Part shown: positions 13,407 to 39,879 of the stretch, in pieces
How positions within the stretch are numbered: position 1 is the first letter of the stretch
Layout: the number at the start of each line of letters is the position of its first letter
Assembly (NCBI GenBank): GCA_964592105.1
Contig: CAZQBL010000025.1
Location: 58 to 64,057, forward strand
DNA from: an uncultured Gammaproteobacteria bacterium
Lineage (GTDB): Bacteria > Patescibacteriota > Patescibacteriia > UBA10025 > JAHIVO01
Length of the DNA stretch: 64,000 nt
Direction of reading: 5' to 3'
Position numbers and translations under genes: made by a program
Notes under the pieces: model-generated
Database searches by the model: none
Told to the model about the DNA's origin: nothing
Seen by the model: only the letters and a program-made list of their open reading frames with translations

Positions 13407-13438
13407 ATTAGTTTGAGATATAACTATATAGAATAGCT

Positions 13439-13475
13439 CCCCACACCAATGTATTGGTGTGGGGGTTTGTTTTGG
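13439..13475 (+). terminator. rho-independent terminator (perfect 12-bp stem CCCCACACCAAT/ATTGGTGTGGGG, 2-nt loop, T-rich tail)
   Basis: Seen directly: ccccacaccaat-gt-attggtgtgggg followed by gtttgttttgg. Confidence 0.85.
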
Positions 13476-13501: not shown

Positions 13502-15445
13502 ATGACGCTCCCCCAAAAAATAACCGATTACTGCGAGCAAAACAGTCTCCGGATAATGTGGATTTTGATTGCTTTGTATTGTGTACTTGTTTCCCTATTA
13601 TGTTTGCTAAAATTCGCCAACTACGGTTACAATGCCTTAGATTTGGGCATCTACAATCAAGTTTTTTACAACTCGGCTCAAGGAAATTTTTTTGATTTCA
13701 CTATCCATCCCCATTCGTACTTGGGAGATCATTTTGAAATTTTCATCGTTTTATTACTTCCGTTTTATCTGCTTTGGCCATCTCCCCAGACACTGCTCAT
13801 CATTCAAACTGTATTTTTGGCTTTGGCCGCTTGGCCGCTTTATTTAATAGCCAGCGCCAGACTAGGAAAAAAATACGCACTGGTCATGGGGTTAATTTTT
13901 CTATTTAGTCCACTGATCCTCAATACCAATTTGTTTGAATTTCACCTTTTGGCTCTGGCTATTTTCTTTTTGCTTTGGGCTTTCTATTTTTTTGAAAAAA
14001 ATAAATTCGGCTGGTGGCTGGTCTTAGCCCTCTTAGCCTTAACTATTAGAGAGGATGTAGCGTTGGTTCTCATAATGTTTTCGTTGCTGGCCTTTTTAGA
14101 GAAAAAAAGCTGGCCTTGGAAAATTTGGCCAGCTGGGCTGGGACTATTTTGGTTCATTATTACTCTAAAAATAATTTCAGCGCTAAATACCTACGGGCAA
14201 TATAAGTTCTTCTATTACTACCAATGGTTAGGCGCTAACTGGTCTGAAGCCTTCCATAATATTTTCACCAAACCATTATTAATTGTTCAACGTTTTTTCT
14301 CCCCGGACAATATTGTCTTAACAATTATCTTGATCGTTCTCTTTGCCGGATTGCCCCTCAAACGACCGAAATTTTTATGGCTGGGATTGTTACCCTTTGT
14401 TCAACTAACCTTGGCTAGTTTTCCCAAGATGCCAATACTGGAAACGCACTACACATCTCTTTTAATTCTTCCTCTCTTTATCGGCACCATATATGGACTG
14501 GCAAAAACTAAACAATCACAAAAACCAATATTTTTGCTAATATTAACGACCATAACCCTATACTCAGCTTTCACACTCGGACCAGTCGGCGGAGTCTTTA
14601 AGTTTATTATTAATGAAAAGCCGGAGACCAAATTATCAATTGCCTTGAAAAATGAATTAGTACAACAAATCCCTTCTCGCGCCAAGGTCGTCGCAACTTA
14701 TGATTACCTAACTCGACTTTCTGGTCGGCCGGACGTATTTTCTTTGCACTATGTCTTTCGGGGAACCAAACAATATTCTTCAGAAAAATATATTTTGCCG
14801 GAAGATGTGGAGTATGCCGCTATTGATTTCTCGGATCTAATAACCTATCAAATCCAATTCTCCCGGGAAAATTTCTACCGAAGCGGCTATCAGAGAGTTA
14901 AAGATTTACTTTTAAACGACTTTGGGCTAGTTCAAATCGCCGACACTCAATCTCTCTGGAAAAAAAACCTTAAATCAAAAACAAAGTTAGTGGAATTTGT
15001 CACTGATTTTACTATTGACAATCCTCAATATTACTATTTTGATAATAAAATAGCTTTTTTGGGGTACTCAACTCCAAAAATAACCACCAGCAACAAAATT
15101 CCACTTATTGATATTTCTTTTTTTTGGAAATCGCTGACGACTTTAACCGAAGACTATCAGCTTCGAATTACTTATCTGGATCAAAACGGAAAATCTTTAT
15201 ACTCGCGCTATTTCCCGCTGGCCTACGGCCTCTACCCAACCAGCCAATGGCCCCAAGAAAAAATCATAAAGACCAACCAGTGGCTGGCATTGCCACAAAA
15301 ATATTCAGGTCAAGCCGTCCAATTAAAAATAAATTTGGTTAGGCTTCAGGGTTATCTTGGGTTGGATAATTTAAAATCGGCTCAGGTAAAAATAACAGAG
15401 GCCGAAGTTATTGGTGAGTCTATTTTTATAAAACTCTTAAAATAA
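13502..15445 (+). CDS. DUF2079-family large polytopic membrane protein (putative GT-C-type glycosyltransferase)
   Basis: LDLGIYNQVF....HPHSYLGDHFEIFIVLLLPFYLLWPSPQTLLIIQTVFLALAAWPLY matches the DUF2079 signature. Start moved to ATG 13502 because the ORF-track start (13454) lies inside the upstream terminator hairpin. Confidence 0.55.
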   Translation: MTLPQKITDYCEQNSLRIMWILIALYCVLVSLLCLLKFANYGYNALDLGIYNQVFYNSAQGNFFDFTIHPHSYLGDHFEIFIVLLLPFYLLWPSPQTLLIIQTVFLALAAWPLYLIASARLGKKYALVMGLIFLFSPLILNTNLFEFHLLALAIFFLLWAFYFFEKNKFGWWLVLALLALTIREDVALVLIMFSLLAFLEKKSWPWKIWPAGLGLFWFIITLKIISALNTYGQYKFFYYYQWLGANWSEAFHNIFTKPLLIVQRFFSPDNIVLTIILIVLFAGLPLKRPKFLWLGLLPFVQLTLASFPKMPILETHYTSLLILPLFIGTIYGLAKTKQSQKPIFLLILTTITLYSAFTLGPVGGVFKFIINEKPETKLSIALKNELVQQIPSRAKVVATYDYLTRLSGRPDVFSLHYVFRGTKQYSSEKYILPEDVEYAAIDFSDLITYQIQFSRENFYRSGYQRVKDLLLNDFGLVQIADTQSLWKKNLKSKTKLVEFVTDFTIDNPQYYYFDNKIAFLGYSTPKITTSNKIPLIDISFFWKSLTTLTEDYQLRITYLDQNGKSLYSRYFPLAYGLYPTSQWPQEKIIKTNQWLALPQKYSGQAVQLKINLVRLQGYLGLDNLKSAQVKITEAEVIGESIFIKLLK

Positions 15446-17105
15446 TTATTGGGCCCTCATCAAAAACCTTCTCGGCAAAAGACTGCCTAATTAGCCAATC
15501 ATCATTGGCATCTTTTTTTTGATAATAAATATAATCAATGGAATTAAACCGGAGAAATTGTTTCTTCTCCTGAACGCTTCCTTGAGTTCCGTCAAAAAAC
15601 CATTGTAGTGCTTCTTTTTTCTCCTCGGCCTGACTGCTTAGATCACTGTGGCCGTAGTAAACCTTGCGCCCAGTGTAAGCCGGGATAAAATTACCGACGA
15701 CTCTTTCTGAAAGAATAACTGTATCTTTCGGCGCGTTGAGCTTAAGCCAGCGAAAACCATTGACTTGAGACGAAGTCAAATAATAAGGGATGTCCTTTGT
15801 CTTATAGGCCACCATATCGCGGGCAATTAAATAAACCGTGGTGGAAAACGAGGCGACCACAAACAACCAAATAAAAATGGTTTTCAAGAAAAAAGATAAT
15901 TTACCGTTGATCATGTTCTTCAGCCGGACAAAAATAAAATCAATGGCCAAAATGGCCAACATAACCATCGGCACATGAAGGCCCTCTGACATTCGCCGCT
16001 GAAACCGCAGAGGAAAATACAATGATAAAGCAATGACGACAAACCAGGTGCCCACAAAAAGCCACTCTTTTTTTCGATGTTTTATGATCAAGATAAGCCC
16101 AATTAACCCCAAGACCCCGATCAATCCATAACCCGTTACATACCACCAAAACGAAGGCGACATGGTCACATTCTGACTCCCCCAGCCTTTGTAACCATCA
16201 ATAAAATTATAAATAAAATAGTAATACAAAACACTAGGTAGCGCTATTAAAAAAATTATTGCCAATTTTTTTATATACAAAAAAGCTAAGCGTGGCACGA
16301 AATCCCTGTCGAATAAAATTCTACTTACCAAATATACGCCCAGAACACCAAAAACTATAAAAAGATCGTAGGGATGAATAAAACCCAACAGTAAAGCCAA
16401 AAAACCAATAATGGCTGATTTACTATGGCCCGATTTGTCCTGATTCAGCATGAACAGCAAGAAAATCGAAATGATAATAATCAGCGCCAGAATAAACAGC
16501 GGATTGTGGAAAATTGTCAAAAAAGTTAGGGCTTCCGGCACCCATAAGTCCACGGAAAATTCGCCCTGTAAATACTGGTTGACATTAAAAACAGGAATGA
16601 ACAGACCGAGTCCGGTAGTAAATACCGCCACAATCAGACAAAGCCTGCGCCATTTTACCTCGCTAAAAAATTTACTGAATAAAATGTACAAAATAATCAA
16701 AAAAATTACCAACAGAAAAATACGGCTCAATTGAAAAGCTGCGGCATTAGATAAATTGAACTCCTCAGCAAAAACTGCCAGTAGATTCCACTGGGGGTGA
16801 AAAAGTAAGGCCGGTTTAACTTCCGGGCTGTATAAGTTTTGAAACAAAAAGTTTCCCTGCCGTGCTTGCTCAATAAATGAATAATAAACATTCACATCAC
16901 CCGGGGTTAATTCATGGATGCCGGTATATTGCATGTCCCCAGGGGTCGTCAACCAACCGTAAACATAAGGCGCACTGGTCACTATCACGGCCAGTAATAT
17001 GACAAACCAAACGAATCGCCATTCGCCCCTTTCAATTATTGCCACTGAATTATTTTCGGCCATAAATATTTTTATGATCTTTTCCTTAATCGCCACATCT
17101 GCCAC
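15426..17105 (-). CDS. large polytopic membrane protein, putative GT-C glycosyltransferase (paralog of 24071..25693)
   Basis: More than 10 predicted TM helices. N-terminal block WRFVWFVILLAVIVTSAPYVYGWLTTPGDMQYTGIHELTPGDVNVYYSFIEQARQG is shared with the 24071 protein. Confidence 0.45.
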   Translation of the reverse strand: MADVAIKEKIIKIFMAENNSVAIIERGEWRFVWFVILLAVIVTSAPYVYGWLTTPGDMQYTGIHELTPGDVNVYYSFIEQARQGNFLFQNLYSPEVKPALLFHPQWNLLAVFAEEFNLSNAAAFQLSRIFLLVIFLIILYILFSKFFSEVKWRRLCLIVAVFTTGLGLFIPVFNVNQYLQGEFSVDLWVPEALTFLTIFHNPLFILALIIIISIFLLFMLNQDKSGHSKSAIIGFLALLLGFIHPYDLFIVFGVLGVYLVSRILFDRDFVPRLAFLYIKKLAIIFLIALPSVLYYYFIYNFIDGYKGWGSQNVTMSPSFWWYVTGYGLIGVLGLIGLILIIKHRKKEWLFVGTWFVVIALSLYFPLRFQRRMSEGLHVPMVMLAILAIDFIFVRLKNMINGKLSFFLKTIFIWLFVVASFSTTVYLIARDMVAYKTKDIPYYLTSSQVNGFRWLKLNAPKDTVILSERVVGNFIPAYTGRKVYYGHSDLSSQAEEKKEALQWFFDGTQGSVQEKKQFLRFNSIDYIYYQKKDANDDWLIRQSFAEKVFDEGPIIILRVL

Positions 17106-17806
17106 AAATAATCTACCGCCGTGGAGAAAACTTTAACTGTACTTTTACGCCCGGCCACTCTTTTTTCCACCCAAGTCACGGGCAGCTCCATAATTTTGTA
17201 ATCTGCTTGCCTGGCTAAAAAGAGCAGCTCGGTATCAAAAAACCAAACATTGTCTTTAATCCGAGGAACTATTTCTTCTGCTACCTTACTGTTAATAAAT
17301 TTGAAGCCGCATTGGGCGTCACTCAAACTCAATTTCAATACGTGGCGCAACAGAAAATTAAAAATTCTGGAGGTCAGCTCTCGACCGATGGAACGCTGTG
17401 TCTTGGATCCTGATATAATTCTTGAACCGATGACAATATCCGCCTTACCAGAATTTAAAAGTTCAACCGCCTGTTTGACATGAACCAGATCGGTGGCCAA
17501 ATCGGCGTCCATATAGCCCAGTATATCGTAAACCCCCTCGCCCCAAGCTTTTTTTAAAGCTCCTCCGCGACCCGGTCGGTCAAGGTGAAAAAAACCGACC
17601 CGATCATCTTTTTGAGACAACCGCTCGGCTATAGCCACCGTCTCGTCAGTTGAACCATTATCGGCCACCAATATCTTCCAGTCATAAACCGTAAGCTCTT
17701 TGGCCAAATATTCCAGAGTTATTTTGATGTTTCCCTCAATAACCAAGGATTCATTGTAGGTTGGCAGGACTATCAATAGTTTTTTCTTCTGGTGCTTGGA
17801 GTTCAT
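17072..17806 (-). CDS. GT2-family glycosyltransferase, polyprenyl-phosphate mannose/glucose synthase-like (DPM1-like)
   Basis: LIVLPTYNES, VADNGSTDET, DAD, GSRI motifs of GT2 Dpm1/GtrB-type enzymes. Confidence 0.8.
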   Translation of the reverse strand: MNSKHQKKKLLIVLPTYNESLVIEGNIKITLEYLAKELTVYDWKILVADNGSTDETVAIAERLSQKDDRVGFFHLDRPGRGGALKKAWGEGVYDILGYMDADLATDLVHVKQAVELLNSGKADIVIGSRIISGSKTQRSIGRELTSRIFNFLLRHVLKLSLSDAQCGFKFINSKVAEEIVPRIKDNVWFFDTELLFLARQADYKIMELPVTWVEKRVAGRKSTVKVFSTAVDYLWQMWRLRKRS

Positions 17807-19052
17807 TTTTTTTTAAATATTTAATGCCTAGAAAGTAAAAATAGCATAAGACCAACACATTGGCTGCCACCACCCAGATAGATTTATAAAAACTCAAATC
17901 GAAAAATCTATAGGTATGATCAAACGGCAAAACCGCCAGCAGATTTACCATAAAGGTAACGGACAAAACACCGAAAACCCAGCGCAACCTTTTATCCGTA
18001 AACAGACACATGGCCAGAATGGGCAGAACCGGATACATGTATCGTTCGTGCATTTCCGTGGGCAGCATGAAAAACGCCAACGAAGCAAAAGCCGCCGAGA
18101 AAAAAATTCCCTGGTAATCCCGTTTTTTGGTCAAAAACCACAAAATACAACCATAAAAACCAATAAACAGAGACAGACCGATAGCAAAATACGGAATTCT
18201 CAGAAATGTCTGAGTATCCATGACGTTTTTCAGATAGCCGCCGGTAAAAGGCCACCAGATATTAAAAGCATTCATGGAAATATACGGCGAATAGCCAGCT
18301 GAGGTGAAAATTACCCTCAAAACATGTAAAAAGTTCCCTGTGACGATAAAAGGAGCGGTCACAAGCAAAAACACAGCTAGACCCAAGCCGATATAACCGA
18401 ATATTTTTTTCCAGCCCTTATCCTTAACGGTCGCCAACATGATAATCGGCAAAATAATAAAACTCTGAAGTTTCATGAGCATGGCCAAGGTAATAAAAAT
18501 CCAGGATCTGAAAAACTTTTTTTGCGTCAGAAAGTACAGAGACAAGATAATAAAAAAGGCGTGAATAGAATCAACCTGACCCCAATAACTGGAATTATAG
18601 ATAATACCGGGATTTAAATAATATGCCACCATAGATAGTAAGGCGATCTTGAAATTGGATTTTTTTTTCAGCAAGAAAAATATGGCCAGCGCCGTCAGCA
18701 CATCAAAAAGAATCCCGTTCAGCTTCAGAATAAACGTCAGCGGCGTTTTCATGTCAATAAAAAAATCGGCCGAATAGAATTTTTGATAAATTACCCCGCT
18801 GAATTTTAAGAAATACAAATATATCGGCAAATAATTAGGCGTTGGTACGAATTTTTCACTACCGTCAATAACCGCGTTGGCCGATGAATCATAGATATTG
18901 CCCAAACCGTTGACCACGGCACTTCTGCTCCAGGCCTGAAACAACAAGATGTCGTCGACAAAACCTTTATTAGGCGCAATGACCAGCCTGATGCCAAGCC
19001 CAACCACTAAAATAACTAATAATAATATTAACTGCCGCTTGCTACTCTTCAT
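17751..19052 (-). CDS. polytopic membrane protein, putative GT-C glycosyltransferase
   Basis: ~11 TM helices; first-loop acidic motif FVDDILLF; YWGQVDS resembles GT87/PIG-M-like mannosyltransferases. Confidence 0.4.
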   Translation of the reverse strand: MKSSKRQLILLLVILVVGLGIRLVIAPNKGFVDDILLFQAWSRSAVVNGLGNIYDSSANAVIDGSEKFVPTPNYLPIYLYFLKFSGVIYQKFYSADFFIDMKTPLTFILKLNGILFDVLTALAIFFLLKKKSNFKIALLSMVAYYLNPGIIYNSSYWGQVDSIHAFFIILSLYFLTQKKFFRSWIFITLAMLMKLQSFIILPIIMLATVKDKGWKKIFGYIGLGLAVFLLVTAPFIVTGNFLHVLRVIFTSAGYSPYISMNAFNIWWPFTGGYLKNVMDTQTFLRIPYFAIGLSLFIGFYGCILWFLTKKRDYQGIFFSAAFASLAFFMLPTEMHERYMYPVLPILAMCLFTDKRLRWVFGVLSVTFMVNLLAVLPFDHTYRFFDLSFYKSIWVVAANVLVLCYFYFLGIKYLKKNELQAPEEKTIDSPANLQ

Positions 19053-20640
19053 AAGACTTGTTGTCGATTATTTTGAAAACTGGATTAGTATCAGACTCAT
19101 TGGTCTTGTTTCCGGAATCGTTGATAATGGCCGTGGCTGGAACAGCAGGCACATCTTGAATCAGTCCGATATACAAGTTATCGTCATTTTTATTATAACA
19201 TTTATTTATGTCACAAAAAACGAACTTATCGAAGCTGACAACGTTTTCCCAATCATCATCTCGGTACTGCCGCACGACCCTAGTCTTTTGAAATTCGCCA
19301 GGATCATAAGCCAAATAAAAAAGCAGATAAATATACGATTCATTGATTTGATCGGTCATATAAACAGTTGCGAATTTATCAGAGTTTTTTTCTATATAAC
19401 CGACCACCGTTTTAATATTATGATAATGGTGAACCCCGCCCTGAACTTTATCTGGGTACTTCTCGTATTGGGAGGCGAGGGCTGGGGCATAAACAAAAAA
19501 AACCAACACGACAAGTGCCGCTAGCAGAAATTTTAAATAGACCGGCGGCAAGGCGACTTTTGGCCTTAACCACTGCGCCAAAGTATAAAGGCCATATCCG
19601 GAAAAAAGCGGAATGACGGACAGACAAAAAGCGCCGCGCAAAAGATGCAAGGGATAATCAGTTAAGGCCACCGGTAGTGGCATAATAAAAAAAAGAAACA
19701 ACAGTAGTTGGTAGTGCTCTTCTCTTCTTTTCCGTAAAACCAGCAGCAAACCGCGCATGGCCAAAAACGCCTCTACCACTAATGCCAAGAAGACTAAAAC
19801 TAGAGCGATAAAAGTTATATACAAATAATAAGTGGAAACAACTTCCAACAAACCACGCCAACCACCATGGAGGGCTGAAACCTGATTAAATCTACCCTGT
19901 AGCCTGGTCCACTGGGTCAGCTGCAAATAGATAAATGGAGCGACGATCAATAATAGAATTAACCAGAAAGATAAGAAATACTTACTTATCGAATTAAACT
20001 TTTTTCGATAAACAAAAACTAAACCGATTAATATCAATGGCAACAATAGTTTTGTTATTGAATAACCGTACAAAGACAAGCCTAATGGTATAGCGCTTAA
20101 GACCACATGCCCGGGCCGCTGCTTGAGACCGGCCACAAACAAAAACAATCCCAAACTCAACAAAAAAGGAACCATGATGGCTTCGTGGCCCGCCCGACTT
20201 AACATCACGTGCCAGGGGGATATGGCCAGCAATAAAGCTGATAGCAATCCTATATTTTTGTTGTTGAAAATTTCTTTCGACAGACAATATGTTATCAAAA
20301 CCGTCAGCACGCCAAAAATCGCGGCTGGTAGTCGCGTCGAAAATTCATTAAGTCCAAACAATGCAACCGCGGGAATATCGGCGTAAATATACATAGAAAA
20401 ACGGTTATCAACACGATCACTGAAACCTTCAAAATATAAAGGCCAAACATTTCCGCGATGGTCCTTGCCTGTTTTTAACAAAGAATAAGCTTCGTAGCCA
20501 GTCAGCGCTTCATCATTATTTATCCCTTCAGGTAGACTACCCAAAAAAGCGAAGCGTAAAATTGTAGCCAGGATCATAATCGCCAAAAGCGGCCACATTG
20601 TTTTTTTATTTCTTTGAATTCCATCTTGGGCCGGCTCCAT
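19042..20640 (-). CDS. GT39/GT83 (ArnT/PMT)-family glycosyltransferase
   Basis: LPEGINNDEALTGYEAYSLLKTGKD: first-loop DE motif of PMT/ArnT enzymes followed by many TM helices. Confidence 0.65.
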   Translation of the reverse strand: MEPAQDGIQRNKKTMWPLLAIMILATILRFAFLGSLPEGINNDEALTGYEAYSLLKTGKDHRGNVWPLYFEGFSDRVDNRFSMYIYADIPAVALFGLNEFSTRLPAAIFGVLTVLITYCLSKEIFNNKNIGLLSALLLAISPWHVMLSRAGHEAIMVPFLLSLGLFLFVAGLKQRPGHVVLSAIPLGLSLYGYSITKLLLPLILIGLVFVYRKKFNSISKYFLSFWLILLLIVAPFIYLQLTQWTRLQGRFNQVSALHGGWRGLLEVVSTYYLYITFIALVLVFLALVVEAFLAMRGLLLVLRKRREEHYQLLLFLFFIMPLPVALTDYPLHLLRGAFCLSVIPLFSGYGLYTLAQWLRPKVALPPVYLKFLLAALVVLVFFVYAPALASQYEKYPDKVQGGVHHYHNIKTVVGYIEKNSDKFATVYMTDQINESYIYLLFYLAYDPGEFQKTRVVRQYRDDDWENVVSFDKFVFCDINKCYNKNDDNLYIGLIQDVPAVPATAIINDSGNKTNESDTNPVFKIIDNKSYEE

Positions 20641-20650
20641 AATGACTAAT

Positions 20651-22069: not shown

Positions 22070-22082
22070 TACTAAAAAATTT

Positions 22083-22493
22083 TTAATGTTTAAAGGCAAA
22101 TTTTCTCCTGGCCAAAAAATTCCAGATAAGCACCAAACCCACACTGATAATTTTAGCAGCCATGTACCAGATCCCTAATAAATCAACAAAAAAATACAGG
22201 AAAAACTCGTTTAAGGCTAGTCCAATTATACCAATAATCGCGAATATTATAAATTCGCGGCTCGGCGAATAAACACTCTGAAAAACCCAGGCCCGACTCA
22301 ATAAATAATTAATTATCAGGCCGGCGATGAAGGCCGCTACGGCGGAAATCAAATAGTGAAACCCAACCCAGTCGGTGAGGGCGAATAGTAAAAATATGTC
22401 CACCGCGGCAGCCAACGCCCCCACAAAAACATAGCGCACAAATTGAATTCGAAAATTATCGCTTTTCCCGACAATTATTTTCTGTAAATCCAT
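22083..22493 (-). CDS. GtrA-family membrane protein (polysaccharide synthesis/translocation)
   Basis: 136 aa, four TM helices, FVRYVFVGALAAAVDIFLLFALTDWVGFHYL typical of GtrA. Confidence 0.75.
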   Translation of the reverse strand: MDLQKIIVGKSDNFRIQFVRYVFVGALAAAVDIFLLFALTDWVGFHYLISAVAAFIAGLIINYLLSRAWVFQSVYSPSREFIIFAIIGIIGLALNEFFLYFFVDLLGIWYMAAKIISVGLVLIWNFLARRKFAFKH

Positions 22494-22856
22494 CGATGTT
22501 TATTTAAAATTCAATCGTTACTAATTAATAAATCGGAACATCCTGTGGAAACAATATACTGTTCGGCAATAAGCTAATCCGTCCGATCGAGAAGATTATC
22601 GGAAATTATATATATAGGCCAATTAATTATAAACGTTATAATGATATTGGTCGAGCTCTTTTGCTAGACGGCGCCAGCGTTCTGCACTCGCCCGGAAAAA
22701 ATCTTGACGAGAAATTGTCGCCAGAGCTCGAGTTTATCATCATATTTAAAAAAAATATTCTGGGGCGGGTCCGGGCCGCTCGAAATTAAAAAAGAATAAA
22801 AATATTACTGATCAAAAAATTCGGTATTGGCCAAAAAATCAATATTCATGCCGATT

Positions 22857-24074
22857 TCAATAAAAAATATAAAACATAAACACTACTAGTGTCAGCCAAG
22901 GAACAAATTCGCTACCTTGTTTAGCAAAAACTAATATTAAAAGCGGGGCCAGCCAGATTACATACCAAGGCTGGAAATAAGAAAGCCCGAAAACCAGAAA
23001 AACCGCCAAAACCAAAAGAATTTTTAAAATTGCCGTATTCGTGTCCCAATGGCGGTGAATTAAAATAATCAAGGCATAAAAAATAATAAAAATACCCAAA
23101 AATACATTTTTAACAACAGGTAAAGCATCTGCTCCCCGGGCATAAAAGAGTAATTTGGCGGGATAAAAAAACGGTTGGCCAAAAAGCTTGGCCTGGATCA
23201 TTACGCCGCGAAAGGTTTCAAATCCCTGCCAAAACGGCAGATAGCATATGACAAACAGCAAGACACAAATACCCGTGGTCTTAAGCCAAAAAACCGACAA
23301 TTGTTTTTCTTTTTGACCCACGGCTATCCATAAAATAAAAATCGGCAACAAAATAATCGCAACATATTTAACTAAAACAGCCAAAGCCAAAGCCGGCAAG
23401 GCCCATAACTTTTTATTTTTAACCATCAGACCAACGGCTAATAAAATGAAAAAGGCCACCATGATGTCGTTATGTCCGTTGTTGGCCACCTCAAAAATCA
23501 ACCAGGGATTCCAGGCCATGAGAAAAAGCCCATTTTTTTTGGATTCCGGCGCCATTACCTCTAATATCAACGATAAAATAAAAACACAGCCGATCCCGAA
23601 AGCAACGGCCAACAGTTTAAACAAAATCGCGCTGGCGAATATATTTGTCCCCGCCAGAATGCCGATTGGCACGACCATCAGCAACCACAGCGGACCATAG
23701 GTTAGTGGCAAGGTCCGCCAGGGCTCGCCAATACGGTTGTAAAAAATATCAGCAGAAAAACTATCCGGGGACACGATATAAGGATTGGCGTGATAAATGC
23801 CGACAATTCTGCTCATCATGGCGTAATTACTAATGTCAGACGAACCGCGTGATGGAAAAAAAACGCAGGTCAAAACGAAAAATAAACTGAAAAAAAACAA
23901 TATTCGGCCACTGACAGTATTTTTCTTGAATATCAAATAAGAAAATAAAAAAACTAAACCAATTCCCAAAACAAAAATTATGCGCCACAGAAGGTTTCCG
24001 TAAAAACCAAGTAAAAGCATAAATAAAATTTCCATCGCGACACCCGCCAGGATAATTTTTTTCCCGTTGCTCAT
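22857..24074 (-). CDS. DUF2029/GT87-like membrane glycosyltransferase
   Basis: SSDISNYAMMSRIVGIYHANPY matches the D...Y......G.NPY loop motif of DUF2029 mannosyltransferases; ~11 TM helices. Confidence 0.5.
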   Translation of the reverse strand: MSNGKKIILAGVAMEILFMLLLGFYGNLLWRIIFVLGIGLVFLFSYLIFKKNTVSGRILFFFSLFFVLTCVFFPSRGSSDISNYAMMSRIVGIYHANPYIVSPDSFSADIFYNRIGEPWRTLPLTYGPLWLLMVVPIGILAGTNIFASAILFKLLAVAFGIGCVFILSLILEVMAPESKKNGLFLMAWNPWLIFEVANNGHNDIMVAFFILLAVGLMVKNKKLWALPALALAVLVKYVAIILLPIFILWIAVGQKEKQLSVFWLKTTGICVLLFVICYLPFWQGFETFRGVMIQAKLFGQPFFYPAKLLFYARGADALPVVKNVFLGIFIIFYALIILIHRHWDTNTAILKILLVLAVFLVFGLSYFQPWYVIWLAPLLILVFAKQGSEFVPWLTLVVFMFYIFY

Positions 24075-25693
24075 GGTAAAACCTTATAAATGCTAATGTC
24101 GTTTTCGGAAAAAACCCGCCGCAGGTATTTTTTTGTTGACGGATCATAATGCCCCGCCGCTTTTTCATATCTGCCCCAGAAAACGTAGGTTATGTTATTC
24201 TGCTTCAAAAACTCCAGCTTCTCGGCCGATTGATTGTCGTCTTTCCAAAACCAATCGCTTTGCTCAAGTTTTTTCTCTAAATCGGCGGTCTGGGGCCATT
24301 GTCCCAGCCAAACCACGCGCCCCGAATAAGCTGGAATGAAATTTCCCGTGTTAAAAGCCGAAAAAATCACATCATTCAAATCCGTATTATTTTTCAGCCA
24401 GACCATGGCTTTCATTTCACTGATGGTCAAATAATATGGCGCGGTCTTCTCCTTTTGATAAAGATAAATATCCTGCCCCAAAATCTGAATATTAGAAAGC
24501 GGCAGAAAAATAAGCAAAACAGCGCCTAGGGCCATTTGGCCATAAGAAAGCGACGCCGTCTTTCTTCGCCAACGATCGAACAAATAAAAAACTCCCGCAG
24601 CCGCTAAAATACTAATCGAAAAATGGAGTCCTTCGGAAAGTCGTCTTTGAAAAGCCAATGGCGCATACACTAGCATGGCCGAAGTAAAAAACCAGGCCAC
24701 AGGAAAAAACCATCTGGCTGACAACTGACGAAACACGTGCCACAGACCGACCATGGCTAAAATCAAAAGCAGACCGTATCCTATTACATACATCCAAACA
24801 TCGGGCGAAGGCAGGATGTTTTGACTGTTCCACCTGCTGATAACCCAGTCACGTCTGTTTATCAGATACAAATACAAAAAAGCCGGTAACGGCATAAAAA
24901 CGAGCCATAAGGAATTACGGACATAGCTCCAGACAACCCTCCTCTGCCACAAAAACAGTATCAGCAGATAAACCGCCAAAACGGCATAAACAGTCACAAT
25001 ATTAAAAGGATGAAACCAGACCAGAAAAAAACAAGCCAGTCCGGCCCAAAGGCTATATGATCTCCTACTAGATTCAAAACCTAAAAGCTGCAGCAAAAAA
25101 ATTAAAACAATCAGGGTTAGGGAGGCAATCAGATGCGGATAATGATAAAGGGTCAAGAAGGTCACGCTTTCCGCGATCCAGATGTCCGCGGGATGGTGAA
25201 GAATATTATCAATGTTGAAAAGAAAAGGATTGAAAAACAGGCCCAAGCCGGAAGAAAACAACAAAATAACTAGGGTCCAGCGGCGCCTTGACTCACCGGA
25301 GAAAAAATAACAAATCAGGAGATAAGCAGTGAAAATAAAAAATAAGATGGCAATAATTCTGGCCAAGTGCAGGGCTAATAAATTCGGCAAATTGAAAACC
25401 TTAGCGGCCCAGCCGATCACCAAATAAAATGGATTGATGTAGACCCGCGCCTGTGCTTCGGCAGTGAATAAATTCAAAAAAATACCGTGTCCCTGCTTAG
25501 CCTGCTCAATCATAGACAGATAGACGTTGGTGTCGCCCGGCGCTAGGTGATGGATGCCGGTATAAACCATATCTTCGGGCGCGGTTAAATATCCGTAAAT
25601 ATAAGGAATAGAAGTGATAACTACCGTCACTAAGGCCAACCCGAAAACAAAACGCCATTGTCTGGGACTGATAGTCTTTAAAAGTTGTCGCAT
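24071..25693 (-). CDS. large polytopic membrane protein, putative GT-C glycosyltransferase (paralog of 15426..17105)
   Basis: WRFVFGLALVTVVITSIPYIYGYLTAPEDMVYTGIHHLAPGDTNVYLSMIEQAKQG aligns with the 15426 protein. Confidence 0.45.
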   Translation of the reverse strand: MRQLLKTISPRQWRFVFGLALVTVVITSIPYIYGYLTAPEDMVYTGIHHLAPGDTNVYLSMIEQAKQGHGIFLNLFTAEAQARVYINPFYLVIGWAAKVFNLPNLLALHLARIIAILFFIFTAYLLICYFFSGESRRRWTLVILLFSSGLGLFFNPFLFNIDNILHHPADIWIAESVTFLTLYHYPHLIASLTLIVLIFLLQLLGFESSRRSYSLWAGLACFFLVWFHPFNIVTVYAVLAVYLLILFLWQRRVVWSYVRNSLWLVFMPLPAFLYLYLINRRDWVISRWNSQNILPSPDVWMYVIGYGLLLILAMVGLWHVFRQLSARWFFPVAWFFTSAMLVYAPLAFQRRLSEGLHFSISILAAAGVFYLFDRWRRKTASLSYGQMALGAVLLIFLPLSNIQILGQDIYLYQKEKTAPYYLTISEMKAMVWLKNNTDLNDVIFSAFNTGNFIPAYSGRVVWLGQWPQTADLEKKLEQSDWFWKDDNQSAEKLEFLKQNNITYVFWGRYEKAAGHYDPSTKKYLRRVFSENDISIYKVLP

Positions 25694-25749
25694 ACTGGAA
25701 TTATAGATTATTTATTCCAAAAACTCTATAATTTAAGCGTGAATCATAG

Positions 25750-26205
25750 ACCAATAATCACATGCCAAGAAATTACTCCAAGAAAATAAACTTATCATAC
25801 TAGCCGGACTGGCTTTTGTAGTCAGCGAGCCGTTTTACGTCTTGGCTATCTCACTCTGGCAAAACCACGATGAATTAGAACACTACGCCTATGCTCATTA
25901 TCTTTATCTGGTCGAACAACGAGCATGGCCGCCTTATCGAGCTGCTCATGATTGATTAAAGACAGGCATCCGGAAGGAAAGCTGCTTATCGACAACAAAG
26001 AATACAATGAAAATCTGATTTTTTACTTCAGTTATTACCAAAAAAAACCAAGCCGAACTTTTATTGAACCGACTCAGTGCTTATAAACCATGGTTTTTCG
26101 GACACCCAGTTGGATTTCTGATATTATTCTTGTCCTACCTAGTGATTATCACCGGGCTGGCCTGGGCCCTGGTCAAAAATAACCAGGGTGATGACGAGAA
26201 GCATT
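25750..26205 (+). pseudogene. fragmented remnant of a membrane-protein gene (three or more frame disruptions)
   Basis: Open pieces in different frames (LAFVVSEPFYVLAISLWQNHDELEHYAYAHYLYLVEQ...; ...AYKPWFFGHPVGFLILFLSYLVIITGLAWALVKNNQGDDEKH*). No ORF of 60 aa or more. Confidence 0.3.
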
Positions 26206-27445
26206 AAACCGCGAGTCTGGTCAGACCGGCCTTTCGTCTAAAATTTTCCCTCCAAATTTTTTCACCAATCAAGTAAATAATCACGACCAAAATAATGGTC
26301 CGACCCAGAACCACCATTTCAAATCCCGGGGCGTAGGGACTTAACAGATCCCAGGCCACAGGAAACTGCAGATAACTGAAAATATCATAAGCCACCCACC
26401 ATAAGGCCTGACGCCAGCTGTTGACTATTAAGACGAAAAATGGTAATAGCCAAATAAGCCATTGGGGTGAATAATACACTCCCCAGAAAACATAAACCAA
26501 GAGGACCAAACCAGACCAACGAATGACATCAATTGGCGTTTTTATATATTTTTTAAAAACATCATAACCGGCAAATATCAAAATCGGTAGAAGTAATTGT
26601 AGTAGAGAAAATATCTTAACGGCTAAAGAGGCTCCGACATTAAAAATCTCCTCCGGCAAAAAACCGGACAATGCCTGATAAAAAATAACAAGAAACGAAC
26701 CATAACCAAAAAACCTTAATGACTGATAGGCATAGGGAAACAAGCCGTTTTCCAGTCCGGCTACCAGACAAACCAAGCCAGTAACCAGCAAAACCGGCAC
26801 CAGAAAAAACAATAGTGGCCCACTGAACGTCTTTATTAGCGGCCCTTTTCCTTGTTGATTCAAATAAAAAACAAACCAGATCGGAAAAAGAACCAGGGCA
26901 TAGCCTTTAGTTAAAAATAATAAACTTAACAAAAAAAACGACCAACTCCATTTTTTTTTAATCAGCAATAACAAGCTTAACATGGATAAAAACGCAGGCA
27001 AGACATCAAATCTGTTTACGGCAAAATACAAAAAAGCCGGCAATGCAAAAAGCCATGTCCATCTGTTTTGGCCACCGAAGTCTTTCATCAAATAAAAAGT
27101 CATGGCAATAACCGCCAGGGCCACTATGGCATTCAAGATAATAAGCAATGCGCTGTAAACATTGAGCTGGTCGGTAAACAGGGCGGGTATGGTCAGGTAT
27201 AAAATAGCCAGAGGCGGATAGCTAAGATGTGTATCCTGATAAGGTAGCTGACCTCGGTGATAATATCCCGCCATATCAAAAAAAGCCCTTGCTTCCTGAT
27301 CATCACGGAAAAGCCGCAAGCCGCCGTTTTGATTATCTATAAACAGTTTTGACGGCGCCGAAACCACCATAACCACAACCACGGTCAACAAGCAAATAAA
27401 AAGCCAATAGCTTCTCGGAATTGATTGTATCTGGTTAAACGCCAT
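26204..27445 (-). CDS. DUF2029/GT87-like membrane glycosyltransferase
   Basis: FDMAGYYHRGQLPYQD loop motif (D..Y....G..PY) plus ~10 TM helices. Confidence 0.45.
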   Translation of the reverse strand: MAFNQIQSIPRSYWLFICLLTVVVVMVVSAPSKLFIDNQNGGLRLFRDDQEARAFFDMAGYYHRGQLPYQDTHLSYPPLAILYLTIPALFTDQLNVYSALLIILNAIVALAVIAMTFYLMKDFGGQNRWTWLFALPAFLYFAVNRFDVLPAFLSMLSLLLLIKKKWSWSFFLLSLLFLTKGYALVLFPIWFVFYLNQQGKGPLIKTFSGPLLFFLVPVLLVTGLVCLVAGLENGLFPYAYQSLRFFGYGSFLVIFYQALSGFLPEEIFNVGASLAVKIFSLLQLLLPILIFAGYDVFKKYIKTPIDVIRWSGLVLLVYVFWGVYYSPQWLIWLLPFFVLIVNSWRQALWWVAYDIFSYLQFPVAWDLLSPYAPGFEMVVLGRTIILVVIIYLIGEKIWRENFRRKAGLTRLAV

Positions 27446-27458
27446 ATGCTCTACCTAA

Positions 27459-29030
27459 CTATAAAACGCGATAAACAGTGGCCTCACCGTCAGCGTAAAC
27501 CTCCTGAAAACCCTGACTATTTCTAATATTATTATTCAAACCCGTGTGGTTTTTTTCCACGAAAACAAAAGACGACTTAAATGTATTTTTTATGTCCTCA
27601 TGAAGGTTGTCGGTCTGCTGGCCAGTAGTTATATCCACAATCTTCTGATGCAATTCATGGCTTAATTCGTAGGAAAAGGTAGGGTCCAGGCCAAAGATGT
27701 AATAATCTTTGGAGTTGAAATAAAACAGCATCGGAAATTCATCCCAGCTGGAGTGAAAAACAATATCTCCGGGCCGAGAATTTTCATAGAGCCAAGCAGA
27801 TGCTGCAGAAAAACGGGTGATAGGAATACCGTTTTTCAAATCATTGTAAACCCCTCTTTCGTCTTTGCCGATAAGGGCGGGCACGGTTACCAAAAAGTAA
27901 ACAATTAAAATTGTGCTGACAATCCTGTGACGCAGATAAAATAAATAGAATTTTGACCACAGCTCTGACCAATTAGTCTTTTCCAAATAATGATTCAACC
28001 CCAAGGCACAAAAAATAATGGCAAAAGGCACGTAATACTCAACATATCTTTTTGACTTCAGGGTAAAAACCAGAAAAAAAACGAAAATAATCAGCGAGGT
28101 TATCGTTTTTTTGGAAAGCCGCGGCGTGCGGACAACGAACAAATAAAATAGAATCAACAGCAGGATACAGATGATGGCCGTGCCACCAAAAAGATCTTTT
28201 AAGGGATAGGGATACCATTCGTTGCCAACAGCAATGACACTTTGATAATTTATGATGCCGATCTTCACCAATTGATGCCAATAAAAAATTATATTTTGCG
28301 GAAATTGTGGATTGACTATGAGTCCGGCCACAACGCCCGCTAGCGACCACAAAAAAAGCCTGACCTCGCTGTTTTTAGTCAGTAACTGAAAAAAATTACT
28401 CCGGCGGTTTTTCACCATTTCATAAACCAAACTCACTAGGGCATAAATCCCGGAAAAAACTAAAATTAAAATAAAACCTCCATAGGCCCAAACGTAAAAA
28501 AATGACAAAATCATAAGCGCAATCCGGCGACGCCTGAACATGAATATCAGCCCCCCTAGCAAAAAAATTATGGACAAAACCGGGGCTTTAACCAGGTTTA
28601 TCCTAAAAATAAAAGGCGTGGTGGCTAAAAGTACCAGCGCGTAGGCGAAAGAAAGCTTCACTTTTTCGCTGCGCAAAAACCAGTAAAAAAGCATGACCAG
28701 GCCCGTACACAAAAAAACTGTGACCAATTTTGCTCCCGGAATTGGGCTCGTGCTATAGACAAACGGAATTAATAATACGTGATAAAGAAAATGCTGGTCA
28801 ATATAACTGTCCCGTAAAATCGTACTTTGTAACCAGGGAAACGTTTTGATAATCCCCTCCTGAGGTATAAGCATGGCCATTTTTATATGATAAAAAGAAT
28901 CCGGATCCGCAAAAGATGGTACGGCCTGAAAATAAGTAAAACAAGCAAAAGAAATCGTCAACAACAACAAGCATAGTAACATTTCTGACTTTTTCCGAAA
29001 GAAAACAAGCATGGAACTGAATAATTTCAT
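27459..29030 (-). CDS. large polytopic membrane protein, putative GT-C glycosyltransferase
   Basis: ~13 TM helices; first-loop acidic motif FADPDSFYH, as GT-C enzymes carry DxD/DE motifs in extracytoplasmic loop 1. Confidence 0.4.
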   Translation of the reverse strand: MKLFSSMLVFFRKKSEMLLCLLLLTISFACFTYFQAVPSFADPDSFYHIKMAMLIPQEGIIKTFPWLQSTILRDSYIDQHFLYHVLLIPFVYSTSPIPGAKLVTVFLCTGLVMLFYWFLRSEKVKLSFAYALVLLATTPFIFRINLVKAPVLSIIFLLGGLIFMFRRRRIALMILSFFYVWAYGGFILILVFSGIYALVSLVYEMVKNRRSNFFQLLTKNSEVRLFLWSLAGVVAGLIVNPQFPQNIIFYWHQLVKIGIINYQSVIAVGNEWYPYPLKDLFGGTAIICILLLILFYLFVVRTPRLSKKTITSLIIFVFFLVFTLKSKRYVEYYVPFAIIFCALGLNHYLEKTNWSELWSKFYLFYLRHRIVSTILIVYFLVTVPALIGKDERGVYNDLKNGIPITRFSAASAWLYENSRPGDIVFHSSWDEFPMLFYFNSKDYYIFGLDPTFSYELSHELHQKIVDITTGQQTDNLHEDIKNTFKSSFVFVEKNHTGLNNNIRNSQGFQEVYADGEATVYRVL

Positions 29031-29069
29031 GACTATATTATATCAGGAATGAGGCATTTGTCATTTTTA

Positions 29070-29120
29070 AAAAAGCCTCCGCCAAGCATGGGGGCGGAAA
29101 CTTTTTTTATTAATTTCAAT
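29070..29120. terminator. bidirectional intrinsic terminator-like hairpin downstream of the PGI/PMI gene
   Basis: AAAAAAGCCTCCGCC-aagcatg-GGGGCGGAAAC-TTTTTTT: GC stem flanked by an A-run and a T-run. Confidence 0.5.
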
Positions 29121-29165
29121 GACACTTCTGAAAACTTATTCGGCCTAACAATTTTTTATAAATTG

Positions 29166-30245
29166 CTATTTTTTTCCTTTTTCCAGTTGCTTCTTAAAGA
29201 AATCAACAAAAGGAATAGGCGAGGGGTCACGACCATTGAGCATAGCCAGATAGAAATTAACATAGCTACCATAAAGCAACGCATCCATCGTCTGGCTAAG
29301 TGTCGAGTCACTGGTAACTAAATAGCTGTCGTGCTTAATCCCATTTTTGTCCAAAACAGTCTTAGTTATAGAAAATCTTTTTCGGATGGGTGGCAGGTAG
29401 TTTTTTGATTCCAGGAACAAAAATGACAGCAAACGACGGTTGTCGCGCGGGTAAATTAAACCTTCCATCAAATGATGATTTAGTTCGGAAATCAGAAAAT
29501 ACGCAGAAAAAGTCTTACTGTTTTCATTTATTTGATTGGCAAAAATATGAGCGTTGCCAGCCAAATGCTCCGCCGCCACGATAATCGGTAAACGTCCCAA
29601 CAACTTCTGGGCCGCCAACTTAGCTGGGTTTTTAGTCTGTTTTGTTTTTAGGCCAAAAACCCGATGCAGTTTAATGATGGTTGAAATCGCCTGGTCAATC
29701 TCCGTTTTGGTAACCGAAACAAAGCCACTACGGACCAAAAGCCCAATCTGACCAATAACCGAGTAGCCAAGACCCATACGCGGCTGGTTACAAGGATTAA
29801 AGCTGGGCGTAAAAATATAAGCTGGCAGACGATAACGCCTGGCCAGGATTGCTAATTTTCCTCCGGCGCAAATAATCAACAATTTGGCCTTTTTCCGGCG
29901 CGCAGCATTAAAAGTGGACAGCACTTCTTCGGTCGTGCCTGAATAACTGGAAAGTATGCAAAGAGTCCGACCGTCGACGAAAGCCGGCAGAGTATAACTA
30001 TTTATTATTTTCAATGGCACTTTGAGTTTTTTGGAATAAACCGATTCGATCAAATGGCCACCTAAAGCCGAGCCGCCCATACCATTAATAAGAATATTAT
30101 TGCAGCGGCGGTAGCTGGAAGGGATGGCCACTTTCTGTGATTCATCCCAAGCTTGTTGGCACTGCAAAGCCAAAGATTCTATTGACCTCAACATTCCTTG
30201 CTTGTCAATTTTTAATATCTTTTTTTGATCGTCCAGTAATCTCAT
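29166..30245 (-). CDS. bifunctional phosphoglucose/phosphomannose isomerase (SIS-domain, archaeal-type PGI/PMI)
   Basis: INGMGGSALGG, SYSGTTEE, two SIS-like halves, length ~360 aa. Confidence 0.6.
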   Translation of the reverse strand: MRLLDDQKKILKIDKQGMLRSIESLALQCQQAWDESQKVAIPSSYRRCNNILINGMGGSALGGHLIESVYSKKLKVPLKIINSYTLPAFVDGRTLCILSSYSGTTEEVLSTFNAARRKKAKLLIICAGGKLAILARRYRLPAYIFTPSFNPCNQPRMGLGYSVIGQIGLLVRSGFVSVTKTEIDQAISTIIKLHRVFGLKTKQTKNPAKLAAQKLLGRLPIIVAAEHLAGNAHIFANQINENSKTFSAYFLISELNHHLMEGLIYPRDNRRLLSFLFLESKNYLPPIRKRFSITKTVLDKNGIKHDSYLVTSDSTLSQTMDALLYGSYVNFYLAMLNGRDPSPIPFVDFFKKQLEKGKK

Positions 30246-32684: not shown

Positions 32685-32688
32685 TCGT

Positions 32689-34152: not shown

Positions 34153-34156
34153 AAAA

Positions 34157-39872: not shown

Positions 39873-39879
39873 AAGAATA

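Follow-up and report, generated by a model that had tools for sequence, protein, structure and literature searches.

A Strain-Variable Island of GT-C Glycosyltransferase Genes Beside VirB2-Like Pilin Genes in a Kerfeldbacteria-Like Patescibacterium

Results

Gene Content of the Island

Analysis of a 64,000-nucleotide stretch of contig CAZQBL010000025.1 (the window) identified an island at 13.5–30.2 kb with eight intact genes for polytopic membrane proteins, which by profile match or predicted fold belong to the GT-C glycosyltransferase superfamily (genes A, B, D, E and H to K; Table 1). These are interleaved with genes for a GT2-family glycosyltransferase (C), a flavin adenine dinucleotide (FAD) enzyme (F) and a GtrA-family protein (G). 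The GT-C genes account for eight of eleven consecutive genes, a clustering that cannot be due to chance. An initial annotation, made from the letters alone, had read the eight large proteins with multiple transmembrane (TM) helices as GT-C enzymes. The open reading frames (ORFs) were found where it had placed them, and all eight could be assigned by Pfam, profile or fold. The membrane-protein families were analysed with Pfam and NCBIfam, homolog alignments, family profiles searched against the PDB, hhalign, and AlphaFold2 (AF2) models compared by Foldseek.

Table 1. Genes and other features of the island and its pilin-side flank (window positions; A to L are the gene letters used in the text).
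Feature	Position	Strand	Evidence and remarks
GalU-like UTP-glucose-1-phosphate uridylyltransferase	9256..10155	+	TIGR01099 galU 1.8e-96, 322.8 bits vs cutoff 326.8; syntenic flank; possible UDP-hexose supply
Extracellular solute-binding protein (SBP)	10152..11543	+	SBP_bac_8, SBP_bac_1 ~1e-24; syntenic flank
VirB2/T4SS_pilin-like protein with Cys-rich C-terminal domain (344 aa)	11552..12586	+	PF18895 4.9e-6
Small VirB2/T4SS_pilin-like protein	12599..12970	+	PF18895 7.1e-9
Small VirB2/T4SS_pilin-like protein, 117 aa, ending VVQTTTNVTT	13053..13406	+	PF18895 6.9e-15; acceptor candidate by inference only
Terminator-like hairpin between pilin and DUF2079 genes	13438..13465	+	12-bp stem with 7 GC pairs, then T-run; inverted repeat I2
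A: DUF2079 GT-C-like membrane protein with large C-terminal extracytoplasmic domain	13502..15445	+	PF09852 9.5e-59; longest ORF from TTG 13454; conserved island end
B: GT-C of the B/I family, partner of GT2 gene C	15426..17105	-	37% identical to I
C: soluble GT2, candidate polyprenyl-phosphate sugar synthase (DPMS/ArnC/GtrB class)	17072..17806	-	PF00535 4.5e-27
D: Gpi18/ALG6/PIG-M-like GT-C	17751..19052	-	Family profile vs PDB; no Pfam match
E: PMT_2 (GT39/ArnT-like) GT-C	19042..20640	-	PF13231 9.7e-17; PF02366 1.5e-5
F: UGM-like FAD enzyme (PRK07208 family)	20651..22069	-	NF005548 2.6e-198; longest ORF to 22144; 472-aa start as called in locus L001
G: GtrA-family 4-TM protein, flippase candidate or GT2 membrane partner	22083..22493	-	PF04138 2.1e-24
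Deletion remnant of a PMT_2 GT-C gene	22514..22822	-	Intact (452 aa) in locus L085; blastn/tblastn vs L085 12844-14202
H: GT87 / MptA-MptB-like GT-C	22857..24074	-	TIGR03459 MptA 2.9e-9; precomputed PF26314 MptA_B_family
I: GT-C of the B/I family, no Pfam model	24071..25693	-	AF2 + Foldseek
Deletion remnant: PMT_2 GT-C N-terminus and C-terminus of a 232-aa gene	25767..26204	+	phmmer to L003 PMT_2 1e-6; both genes intact in L085
J: GT87 / PIG-M-like GT-C	26204..27445	-	Family GT87 matches; profile vs PIG-M
K: GT-C of a Pfam-less family widespread in Patescibacteria	27459..29030	-	AF2 + Foldseek; conserved island end
L: bifunctional phosphoglucose/phosphomannose isomerase (PGI/PMI)	29166..30245	-	PF10432 (bact-PGI_C) 6.4e-30; NF006425 4.6e-77, below cutoff; conserved flank

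GT-C Assignment of the Membrane Proteins

Protein A, called DUF2079 from the outset, matches PF09852 over profile positions 7–422 of 459 (200.1 bits against a cutoff of 28.2). Its link to the GT-C superfamily is indirect and runs only via D: the A and D families align by hhalign with a probability of 91.5% (E 8.7e-7). The D family profile matched yeast ALG6 (6snh, 2.5e-13) and glycosylphosphatidylinositol (GPI) mannosyltransferase 1 (PIG-M; 5e-13) in the PDB, and D homologs are labelled 'Gpi18-like mannosyltransferase' by the Joint Genome Institute (JGI). The GT39/ArnT-like call for E was upheld by a PMT_2 match (PF13231, 62.1 bits against a cutoff of 26.1) and by the NNDE motif in loop 1, in the sequence ...INNDEALTGYEAY....

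Proteins B and I, correctly noticed as a paralog pair, are 37% identical over their full length (E 6e-110), and neither has a Pfam match. AF2 models of I (pLDDT 95.3) and K (pLDDT 93.5) both showed ~13 helices and a C-terminal alpha/beta domain. In Foldseek searches of the PDB, I matched STT3, AglB, PglB, AftA, DPY19 and ArnT (E to 3.6e-11, TM-score 0.5–0.59), and K matched STT3, AglB, PglB, ALG12, DPY19 and ArnT (E to 7e-11, TM-score to 0.67). Every PDB match of either protein with E ≤ 1e-3 was a GT-C enzyme, AftD and ALG9 also being among these. Protein B is a member of the I-family homolog alignment (A1), whose model shows the GT-C fold, and the B/I and K families are distant homologs (hhalign probability 97.3%, E 2.7e-11). 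The B/I family profile returned only spurious nanobody matches from the PDB, and the profiles of the A, H and K families returned none.

None of the eight membrane proteins resembles a transporter, the identity that would have refuted the initial reading. Two other identities were considered for I and K and rejected. Transporter structures appeared only as Foldseek noise, at a probability ≤ 0.12 and a TM-score ≤ 0.13. Membership of STT3 was weighed on account of the fold ranking and a WD motif in K; neither sequence nor gene context supports it. The K and B/I family profiles did not detect STT3, PglB or AglB in the PDB, and there was no Pfam STT3 match. The motif in K is an invariant W429–D430 within HSSWDEFP, ~30 residues past the last TM helix, a position that we take to be reminiscent of WWDYG; the full WWDYG motif is absent from K, and the B/I family has no equivalent. 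K and B/I are two very large, essentially unannotated GT-C families: relatives of K were found in 299 species genomes, the B/I family comprises 10,082 clusters (50% identity; full HMMER scan of 1.8 billion representatives), and only 4 of 41 B/I members touch DUF6541.

The GT87-like reading of H and J is supported by their ortholog families, with their own scores below the Pfam threshold. GT87 was matched by 13/24 H-family and 13/18 J-family members (best E 9e-9 and 1e-9, respectively), and H additionally has a family-level match to PMT_2, besides MptA and GT87. Precomputed labels were MptA_B_family on H itself (L001 copy) and GT87 on the J ortholog in locus L004. The J family profile matched PIG-M in the PDB (4.6e-7); single-sequence PDB searches with H or J returned nothing. 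A and H are the least directly supported of the eight assignments.

All eight proteins have a short basic N-terminus (1–5 Lys/Arg), a first TM helix and then a first loop of 45–80 residues, with 7–11 TM helices by hydropathy. The first loop contains invariant residues in A (D63), I/B (D54, I numbering), H (D80), J (D48 and E51) and K (D44), and a nearly invariant Asp in D (D34); E carries NNDE. Positive-inside counts over all loops, made with a crude hydropathy predictor, were uninformative, since missed helices break parity. With the Pfam, profile and fold evidence and this shared layout, the claim of eight GT-C proteins stands.

Predicted Donor Supply

Protein C has no TM helix. Its best PDB match was the Pyrococcus dolichol-phosphate mannose synthase (DPMS; 5mlz, 1.7e-10), aligned through its catalytic domain and covering C residues 5–242, followed by ArnC (9e-7), in line with the Dpm1-like GT2 call. 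The top NCBIfam matches (PgfS, AglJ, PpgS and ArnC) are all polyprenyl-phosphate glycosyltransferases, each scoring below its equivalog cutoff. The C and B genes overlap by 34 nt, and natural fusions of an N-terminal GT2 with a C-terminal B/I-type GT-C are present in four proteins of 785–792 aa: P0330, P0365 and P0373, among the 150 best matches of the B/I scan, and P0072, from the collected I homologs. P0330 shares 39% identity with C and 32% with B. Across related islands, C-type GT2 and B/I-type GT-C genes rise and fall together in number, as in the CCC-III arrangement of L077, L081 and L083. The fusions represent direct genomic evidence from which C-type GT2 and B/I-type GT-C proteins are predicted to work together. 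Two larger proteins (P0297 and P0347, ~1,350–1,390 aa) have a YfhO-like region joined to a C-terminal B/I-type domain.

Protein G has four TM helices and is a GtrA-family member (PF04138), as first called; LPG_synthase_TM proteins are found in place of GtrA in some related islands. The nearest solved structures to F are eukaryote-type UDP-galactopyranose mutases (UGMs; 3uka, 2e-18; 4dsg, 2.7e-15), in line with its UGM-like annotation. Scores against curated UGM models were below cutoff (TIGR00031 41.7 bits, cutoff 303.75; GLF 16.1, cutoff 26.3), and the family of F, NF005548/PRK07208, is titled 'hypothetical protein'. Because its nearest solved relatives are UGMs, with 4dsg matching over the full length, F probably works like a UGM; this concerns its likely activity rather than a demonstrated membership of the UGM family.

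The neighbouring GalU-like gene points to UDP-hexose (UDP-glucose), and not GDP-mannose, as the likely donor source. Gene L had been counted with the sugar-supply genes. Its identity as a bifunctional PGI/PMI was retained, but the dedicated supply role was not: L sits beside RuvC, YebC and the glycogen genes, adjoins K in most related loci and is probably a conserved flank, possibly with a housekeeping function; a part in sugar supply is possible. No backbone pathway was present in the window in or next to the island. Use of lipid-phosphate-sugar donors by the GT-Cs at the extracytoplasmic face would be in keeping with the DPMS-like GT2, the GtrA protein and the GT2–GT-C fusions, which support it indirectly.

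Comparison with Related Loci

Related loci were collected by a scan of one genome per species; 80 loci were retrieved and the window proteins were mapped onto them. The common layout is GlgA-(GH15)-RuvC-YebC / PGI-K-(variable genes)-DUF2079 (convergent)-VirB2-like pilins-SBP-GalU. DUF2079 (A) was present in 46 related loci. The interval from K to DUF2079 contained 0–4 large polytopic genes in the 40 loci with both ends retrieved, against six across 12 kb in the window, a comparison that is biased against large islands by the 10-kb flank limit on retrieved loci. In related genomes, GT-C genes and small GT2 genes occupy this interval, and in four genomes K directly abuts DUF2079. In the nearest species (K 55–60% identical) the set consists of K-J-I-A alone, which makes H and the closely packed G-F-E-D-C-B block additions of this lineage. 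On this gene-order evidence K and A appear as a conserved core, J and I as common to the nearest species, and H with the G-F-E-D-C-B block as lineage-specific.

The initial annotation had considered the array unusually dense and had suggested a comparison with related genomes. The flanks are conserved in the 80 genomes, whereas the contents between K and DUF2079 are variable. Within the clade, a density of eight is the upper end of a common pattern, unusual in degree and not in kind.

Among the 133 ORFs of ≥ 180 aa in 38 complete islands, about two thirds were classed as GT-C and ~20% as GT2. There were 52 B/I-type GT-Cs, about 40 other GT-Cs (J-, H-, E- and D-type, plus GT87, PMT_2 and ALG3/6-like), 27 GT2 proteins (25 small soluble C type, 2 larger with TM helices), 6 methyltransferases, 2 MprF-flippase-like proteins, 1 GT4, 1 LtaS-like sulfatase-domain protein, and a remainder of about 4 with no Pfam match listed. 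Neither the window island nor the 38 complete related islands contained an initiating phosphoglycosyltransferase, Wzx, Wzy or an ABC (ATP-binding cassette) exporter. The sulfatase-domain protein (L078, 11525–13675; 716 aa, 6 TM, LtaS/EptA-like) may point to a polymer with a lipid anchor or phospho-substituents in that genome.

Decayed Genes and Turnover

Two decayed GT-C genes were identified in the window, and both are intact in L085, whose DNA is 88–90% identical. The first had been noticed as a decayed ninth membrane gene. It is real and lies on the + strand, but it is not the sole remnant. A + frame with two stops at ~25.75–26.2 kb matches the N-terminus of a PMT_2 protein of Kerfeldbacteria MKparc4 (TM1 and WNNHDE; E 1e-6). 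The equivalent position in L085 is occupied by two intact genes, one for a 483-aa PMT_2 protein and one for a 232-aa protein (tblastn 85–91% identity); in the window, a deletion of ~1.7 kb has fused the first 59 codons of the former to the last ~80 codons of the latter. The second remnant lies between H and G, where L085 has a 452-aa PMT_2 gene of which the window keeps only fragments. The I ortholog in L085 (10001–11622) is itself split into ORFs of 421 aa and 114 aa, through either reciprocal decay or sequencing error.

The GT-C count is ten in this close relative and eight in the window. The deletions in the window and the split I gene in L085 indicate an array that gains and loses GT-C genes on a very short evolutionary timescale. 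As for signals of phase variation, no significant repeats were detected in the window, and A/T homopolymers reach only 8–9 nt, which is ordinary for AT-rich membrane-protein genes.

Adjacent Pilin-Like Genes

Immediately upstream of DUF2079 lies the gene for a 117-aa pilin-like protein whose tail, VVQTTTNVTT, follows directly after its second and last TM helix. The hairpin between the two genes overlaps the TTG start (13454) of the longest DUF2079 ORF, and the true start is therefore probably ATG 13502. A pilin gene lies directly upstream of A in 32 loci (orthologs in L002–L083). The last 12 residues of these pilins are 25% Thr, against 5.2% in the C-termini of other genes, and N-x-S/T was present in 16/32 tails against 24/632 (3.8%). 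Where K is single and DUF2079 is missing (four loci: L028, L035, L037 and L041), the pilin tails have no Thr-rich or sequon motif. In two loci with K duplicated and no DUF2079 (L053 and L072), the opposite strand carries 4–7 pilin-like genes, and N-[VI]-[TS] endings (NVT, NIT, NIS, NAS) recur at their C-termini.

In the 344-aa T4SS_pilin-domain protein (11552–12586), the C-terminus is extended by a long Cys-rich stretch in which CC and CxxC spacings are frequent; its orthologs, of 256–666 aa, have similarly Cys-rich ends. VirB2-like pilin arrays are reportedly essential in a cultivated relative. The numbers given above for the tails are small, they ignore kinship, and synteny in these genomes is rigid, so the pilin lead is suggestive only. 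VirB2-like pilin arrays are known in Patescibacteria (PMC12102498); no report of their glycosylation was found in the literature.

Chromosomal Setting

An identical copy of the locus is present on JGI contig Ga0212092_1002102 (L001), from the same organism. Homologs of the membrane proteins that have no Pfam match come nearly all from metagenome-assembled genomes of the 'Patescibacteria group' or 'Candidatus Kerfeldbacteria', and the host is accordingly classed, on homology, as a Kerfeldbacteria-like Patescibacterium. The records of L008, L014, L028, L041, L044 and other loci with the typical Patescibacteria layout are titled 'uncultured Gammaproteobacteria bacterium' and are probably mislabelled.

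The presence in the window of dnaA and dnaN (50371–53172), a class A penicillin-binding protein (PBP; 47698–50274), glycogen genes and a T2SSE ATPase indicates a chromosomal, origin-near region of a peptidoglycan-making bacterium of the candidate phyla radiation (CPR). In the composition profile of the window, the GC skew switches sign near 52 kb; together with dnaN/dnaA, this places the island ~25–40 kb from the likely replication origin. Complete relatives have genomes of 0.89–1.31 Mb, of which a 16.7-kb region would be ~1–2%.

A glycogen/starch cluster lies beside the island at 31596–40821, with GH15, two GlgA-type synthases (32689–34152 and 38103–39872), weak branching-enzyme-like ORFs and a GalT-like gene. 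The cluster may draw, in competition with the island, on the same UDP/ADP-glucose pool. On the other side, a PGA_cap (CapA-like) protein is encoded at 8002–9213 (+; 7.7e-73) and is kept upstream of galU in related loci. It also matches the model of the lasso-peptide Trp epimerase MslH (3e-21), far below the model cutoff.

Discussion

The island most likely builds or decorates a sugar coat on the outside of the cell. It is interpreted, with a probability of roughly 0.78, as a strain-variable, multi-module extracytoplasmic glycosylation island that depends on polyprenyl-phosphate sugars. The initial annotation had proposed stepwise extracytoplasmic glycosylation from polyprenyl-phosphate-linked donors, a reading that is supported, having withstood each check applied to it, and that the family and fold assignments, the GT2, the GtrA protein and the fusions all fit. 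At the cytoplasmic face, the soluble GT2 C would move a sugar from a nucleotide sugar onto polyprenyl phosphate; GalU would feed the nucleotide-sugar pool, and F would probably add a furanose form of nucleotide sugar. G would anchor C, flip the lipid-linked sugar, or both. At the outer face, the GT-Cs would each attach one sugar at a time, in steps, to an acceptor already present outside the membrane. As the island has no initiating phosphoglycosyltransferase, Wzx/Wzy or ABC exporter, the glycan would be built in situ and not preassembled on undecaprenyl diphosphate. The families and folds, synteny, fusions and deletions are observed, whereas the identity of the donor, the flipping step, the order of action and the acceptor are inferred. 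The underlying GT-A, GtrA and GT-C logic is established for Gram-positive wall polymers (review PMC8035078).

Several observations weigh against this interpretation. F and G were present only in L001 and the ~90%-identical L085 and in 0/80 other genomes, and are thus not general parts of the system. With one GT2 for eight GT-Cs in the window, most GT-Cs have no dedicated donor synthase nearby. As single sequences, H (19.7 bits) and J (19.8 bits) score below the GT87 cutoff of 25 (~7e-4 each). Five of the eight membrane proteins are without a predicted structure, and the predicted outward orientation of the acidic first loops rests on fold homology and the positive N-termini. Synteny is generally strong in small CPR genomes, and some of the gene adjacency may simply stem from it. 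All steps of the mechanism are predicted from genes and models.

Three kinds of acceptor come into question: a lipoglycan, a wall polymer and the adjacent pilins. Among the alternatives, the array could build a membrane-anchored lipoglycan of mannan or glucan type from polyprenyl-phosphate hexose, in the manner of PimE, MptB, MptA and MptC with Ppm1 in mycobacterial lipomannan. The MptA and MptA_B_family matches of H, the GT87 (PimE family) likeness of H and J, and the resemblance of D and J to PIG-M, Gpi18 and ALG6 are all consistent with this, as is the adjacent PGI/PMI. One GT2 for many GT-Cs is also the mycobacterial pattern, in which Ppm1 serves many GT-Cs, and one related island encodes the LtaS-like sulfatase-domain membrane protein. 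The matches are, however, at the superfamily level and short of equivalog cutoffs, the nucleotidyltransferase is GalU-like, and the island contains no PimA/PimB-type GT4, phosphatidylinositol (PI) synthase or GDP-mannose pyrophosphorylase. Gene content also differs strongly between close relatives, unlike that of a core envelope polymer pathway. A lipoglycan is on the whole unlikely, if still worth keeping in mind.

The genes could instead be independent GT-A/GtrA/GT-C modules that decorate a peptidoglycan-attached polysaccharide or a teichoic-acid-like polymer, as in Listeria, Bacillus and Lactococcus. The triad of GT2, GtrA and GT-C is present, GT2 and GT-C genes occur as pairs and as fusions, and a variable, strain-specific repertoire is typical of phage-receptor decorations; the class A PBP shows that the host makes peptidoglycan. 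Against this, the window's island has no TagO/TarO, LCP ligase, ABC exporter or LtaS, eight GT-Cs are far above any described decoration system, and these bacteria are not known to have such a polymer. Decoration of a wall polymer is possible but tentative, and we think it unlikely.

A further alternative is that the membrane-proximal, Thr-rich C-terminal tail of the pilin, which often carries N-x-T, receives sugar from A and/or K and that accessory GT-Cs extend the glycan, in parallel with pilA-tfpO/tfpW in Pseudomonas. This would account for the position of A directly downstream of a pil117-type gene in 32 loci and for the Thr and N-x-S/T enrichment of the tails, and the hairpin between pilin gene and A is of the kind seen in attenuated pilin operons. 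The four A-less loci without a tail motif and the two K-duplicated loci with N-[VI]-[TS] pilin arrays fit as well, and the folds of K and I are most like STT3, AglB and PglB; TfpW is reportedly a GT-C pilin glycosyltransferase. Adjacency may, on the other hand, only mirror the conserved synteny, and the co-variation comes from very few loci and is without phylogenetic correction. The tails vary (KVT, DVT, TVT), so there is no strict sequon, and they could be removed altogether, as VirB2/TrbC pilins elsewhere are processed C-terminally. K and I also have no sequence-level STT3 match. Pilin glycosylation is regarded as doubtful.

The most specific form of this proposal is more speculative again and rather improbable. 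It holds that ABY1-class Patescibacteria have a hypervariable GT-C-only island in which the conserved core enzymes, K with its STT3-like fold and DUF2079, glycosylate the membrane-proximal Thr-rich/N-x-T tails of the neighbouring VirB2-like pilins, while swappable GT2 and GT-C modules diversify the glycan. If true, it would place an O-antigen-like variability on the pilus or contact surface that epibionts use to meet hosts and evade phages.

That the island is no functional unit, with independent GT-C genes gathered at a recombination-permissive site and some of them non-catalytic or decaying, is very improbable: the two remnants, the split I gene in L085, the range from zero to many genes between the same flanks and the single GT2 for eight GT-Cs would suit it, but the eight ORFs are intact with a catalytic-loop Asp invariant across orthologs, the tight or overlapping spacing suggests operons (G-F-E-D-C-B, I-H and K-J), GT2 and GT-C numbers co-vary, and fusions exist.

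CPR/Patescibacteria are ultra-small bacteria that live on other microbes as attached cells and make up a considerable part of bacterial diversity; to our knowledge, almost nothing is known of their cell surface. Here, 1–2% of the DNA of ~1-Mb genomes is given over to membrane glycosyltransferases at a single conserved site beside VirB2-like pilin genes, with a repertoire that changes even between strains ~90% identical in DNA. Should its product be a variable glycan on the cell surface, the island would correspond, in CPR bacteria, to O-antigen and capsule loci and would be an obvious determinant of host range and phage susceptibility. The natural GT2–GT-C fusions offer a testable pairing of donor synthase and transferase, and the pilin tail is a concrete candidate acceptor. 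In the literature, of which coverage was incomplete, no prior description of a Patescibacteria GT-C locus, of DUF2079 or of PRK07208 was found.

Comparison with Known Systems

Three- and multi-component systems (GtrA-GtrB-GtrX; CsbB-GtcA-YfhO; GtlA-GtcA-GtlB; GacI/J-GacK-GacL) combine a GT2 for polyprenyl-phosphate monosaccharide, a GtrA-type protein and an outward GT-C, as the island is predicted to do (PMC8035078). Adjacent GT2–GT-C pairs are common to both, and the combination of a soluble GT2 and a small membrane protein encoded apart from it is reminiscent of GacI/GacJ (PMC8035078). The described three-component systems differ in having one GT-C per module and in decorating a polymer from a separate pathway, whereas the island has eight GT-Cs of six families with one GT2, in a ~1-Mb CPR genome with no backbone pathway in or next to it.

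The mycobacterial and corynebacterial lipomannan/lipoarabinomannan set (PimE of GT87, MptB, MptA, MptC and Emb/Aft with Ppm1) likewise uses many GT-Cs that act stepwise outside the membrane from one or two polyprenyl-phosphate donors. H is MptA/MptA_B_family-like, H and J are GT87-like, and AftA and AftD turned up in the fold comparisons of I and K, a likeness at the superfamily level only. Of the actinobacterial lipomannan components, the window contains MptA/B-like, GT87-like and Ppm1-like proteins, and no PI-anchor or GDP-mannose genes were found in the locus. The actinobacterial genes are scattered, conserved and (near-)essential, in contrast to the clustered and strongly strain-variable genes of the island.

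STT3, AglB and PglB are the best structural matches of K and I, and in both groups a polytopic GT-C core is paired with a C-terminal extracytoplasmic domain. K and I differ in showing neither sequence-profile detection nor a full WWDYG motif, and the Foldseek ranking among GT-C-A members is not discriminating. Unlike the setting of STT3/AglB/PglB, the window island and the 38 related islands contained no genes for lipid-diphosphate oligosaccharide assembly.

In Pseudomonas aeruginosa, the genes for TfpO/PilO and TfpW, like A, are genes for polytopic glycosyltransferases directly downstream of a pilin gene. The modified residues of Pseudomonas pilins are Ser/Thr at or near the C-terminus, and a preprint is said to describe TfpW as a GT-C enzyme. 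The island pilins are VirB2/T4SS-type and not type IV, and DUF2079 is unrelated in sequence to the O-antigen-ligase-like TfpO.

The logic of the eukaryotic ALG/GPI transferases of the endoplasmic reticulum (ALG3/6/8/9/12, PIG-M, PIG-V/Gpi18) is also alike, with successive GT-Cs fed by dolichyl-phosphate sugars from a DPM1-type GT2. The D and J profiles match ALG6/PIG-M, and the K fold matches ALG12 and ALG9. The context of the island is bacterial, and the similarity is remote, so these are not orthologs. The parts of the island thus all come from known superfamilies; the organisation, of which we found no earlier description, would be what is new: a conserved CPR chromosomal site made almost only of GT-C and DPM1-like GT2 genes, variable between near-identical strains and lying beside a pilin array.

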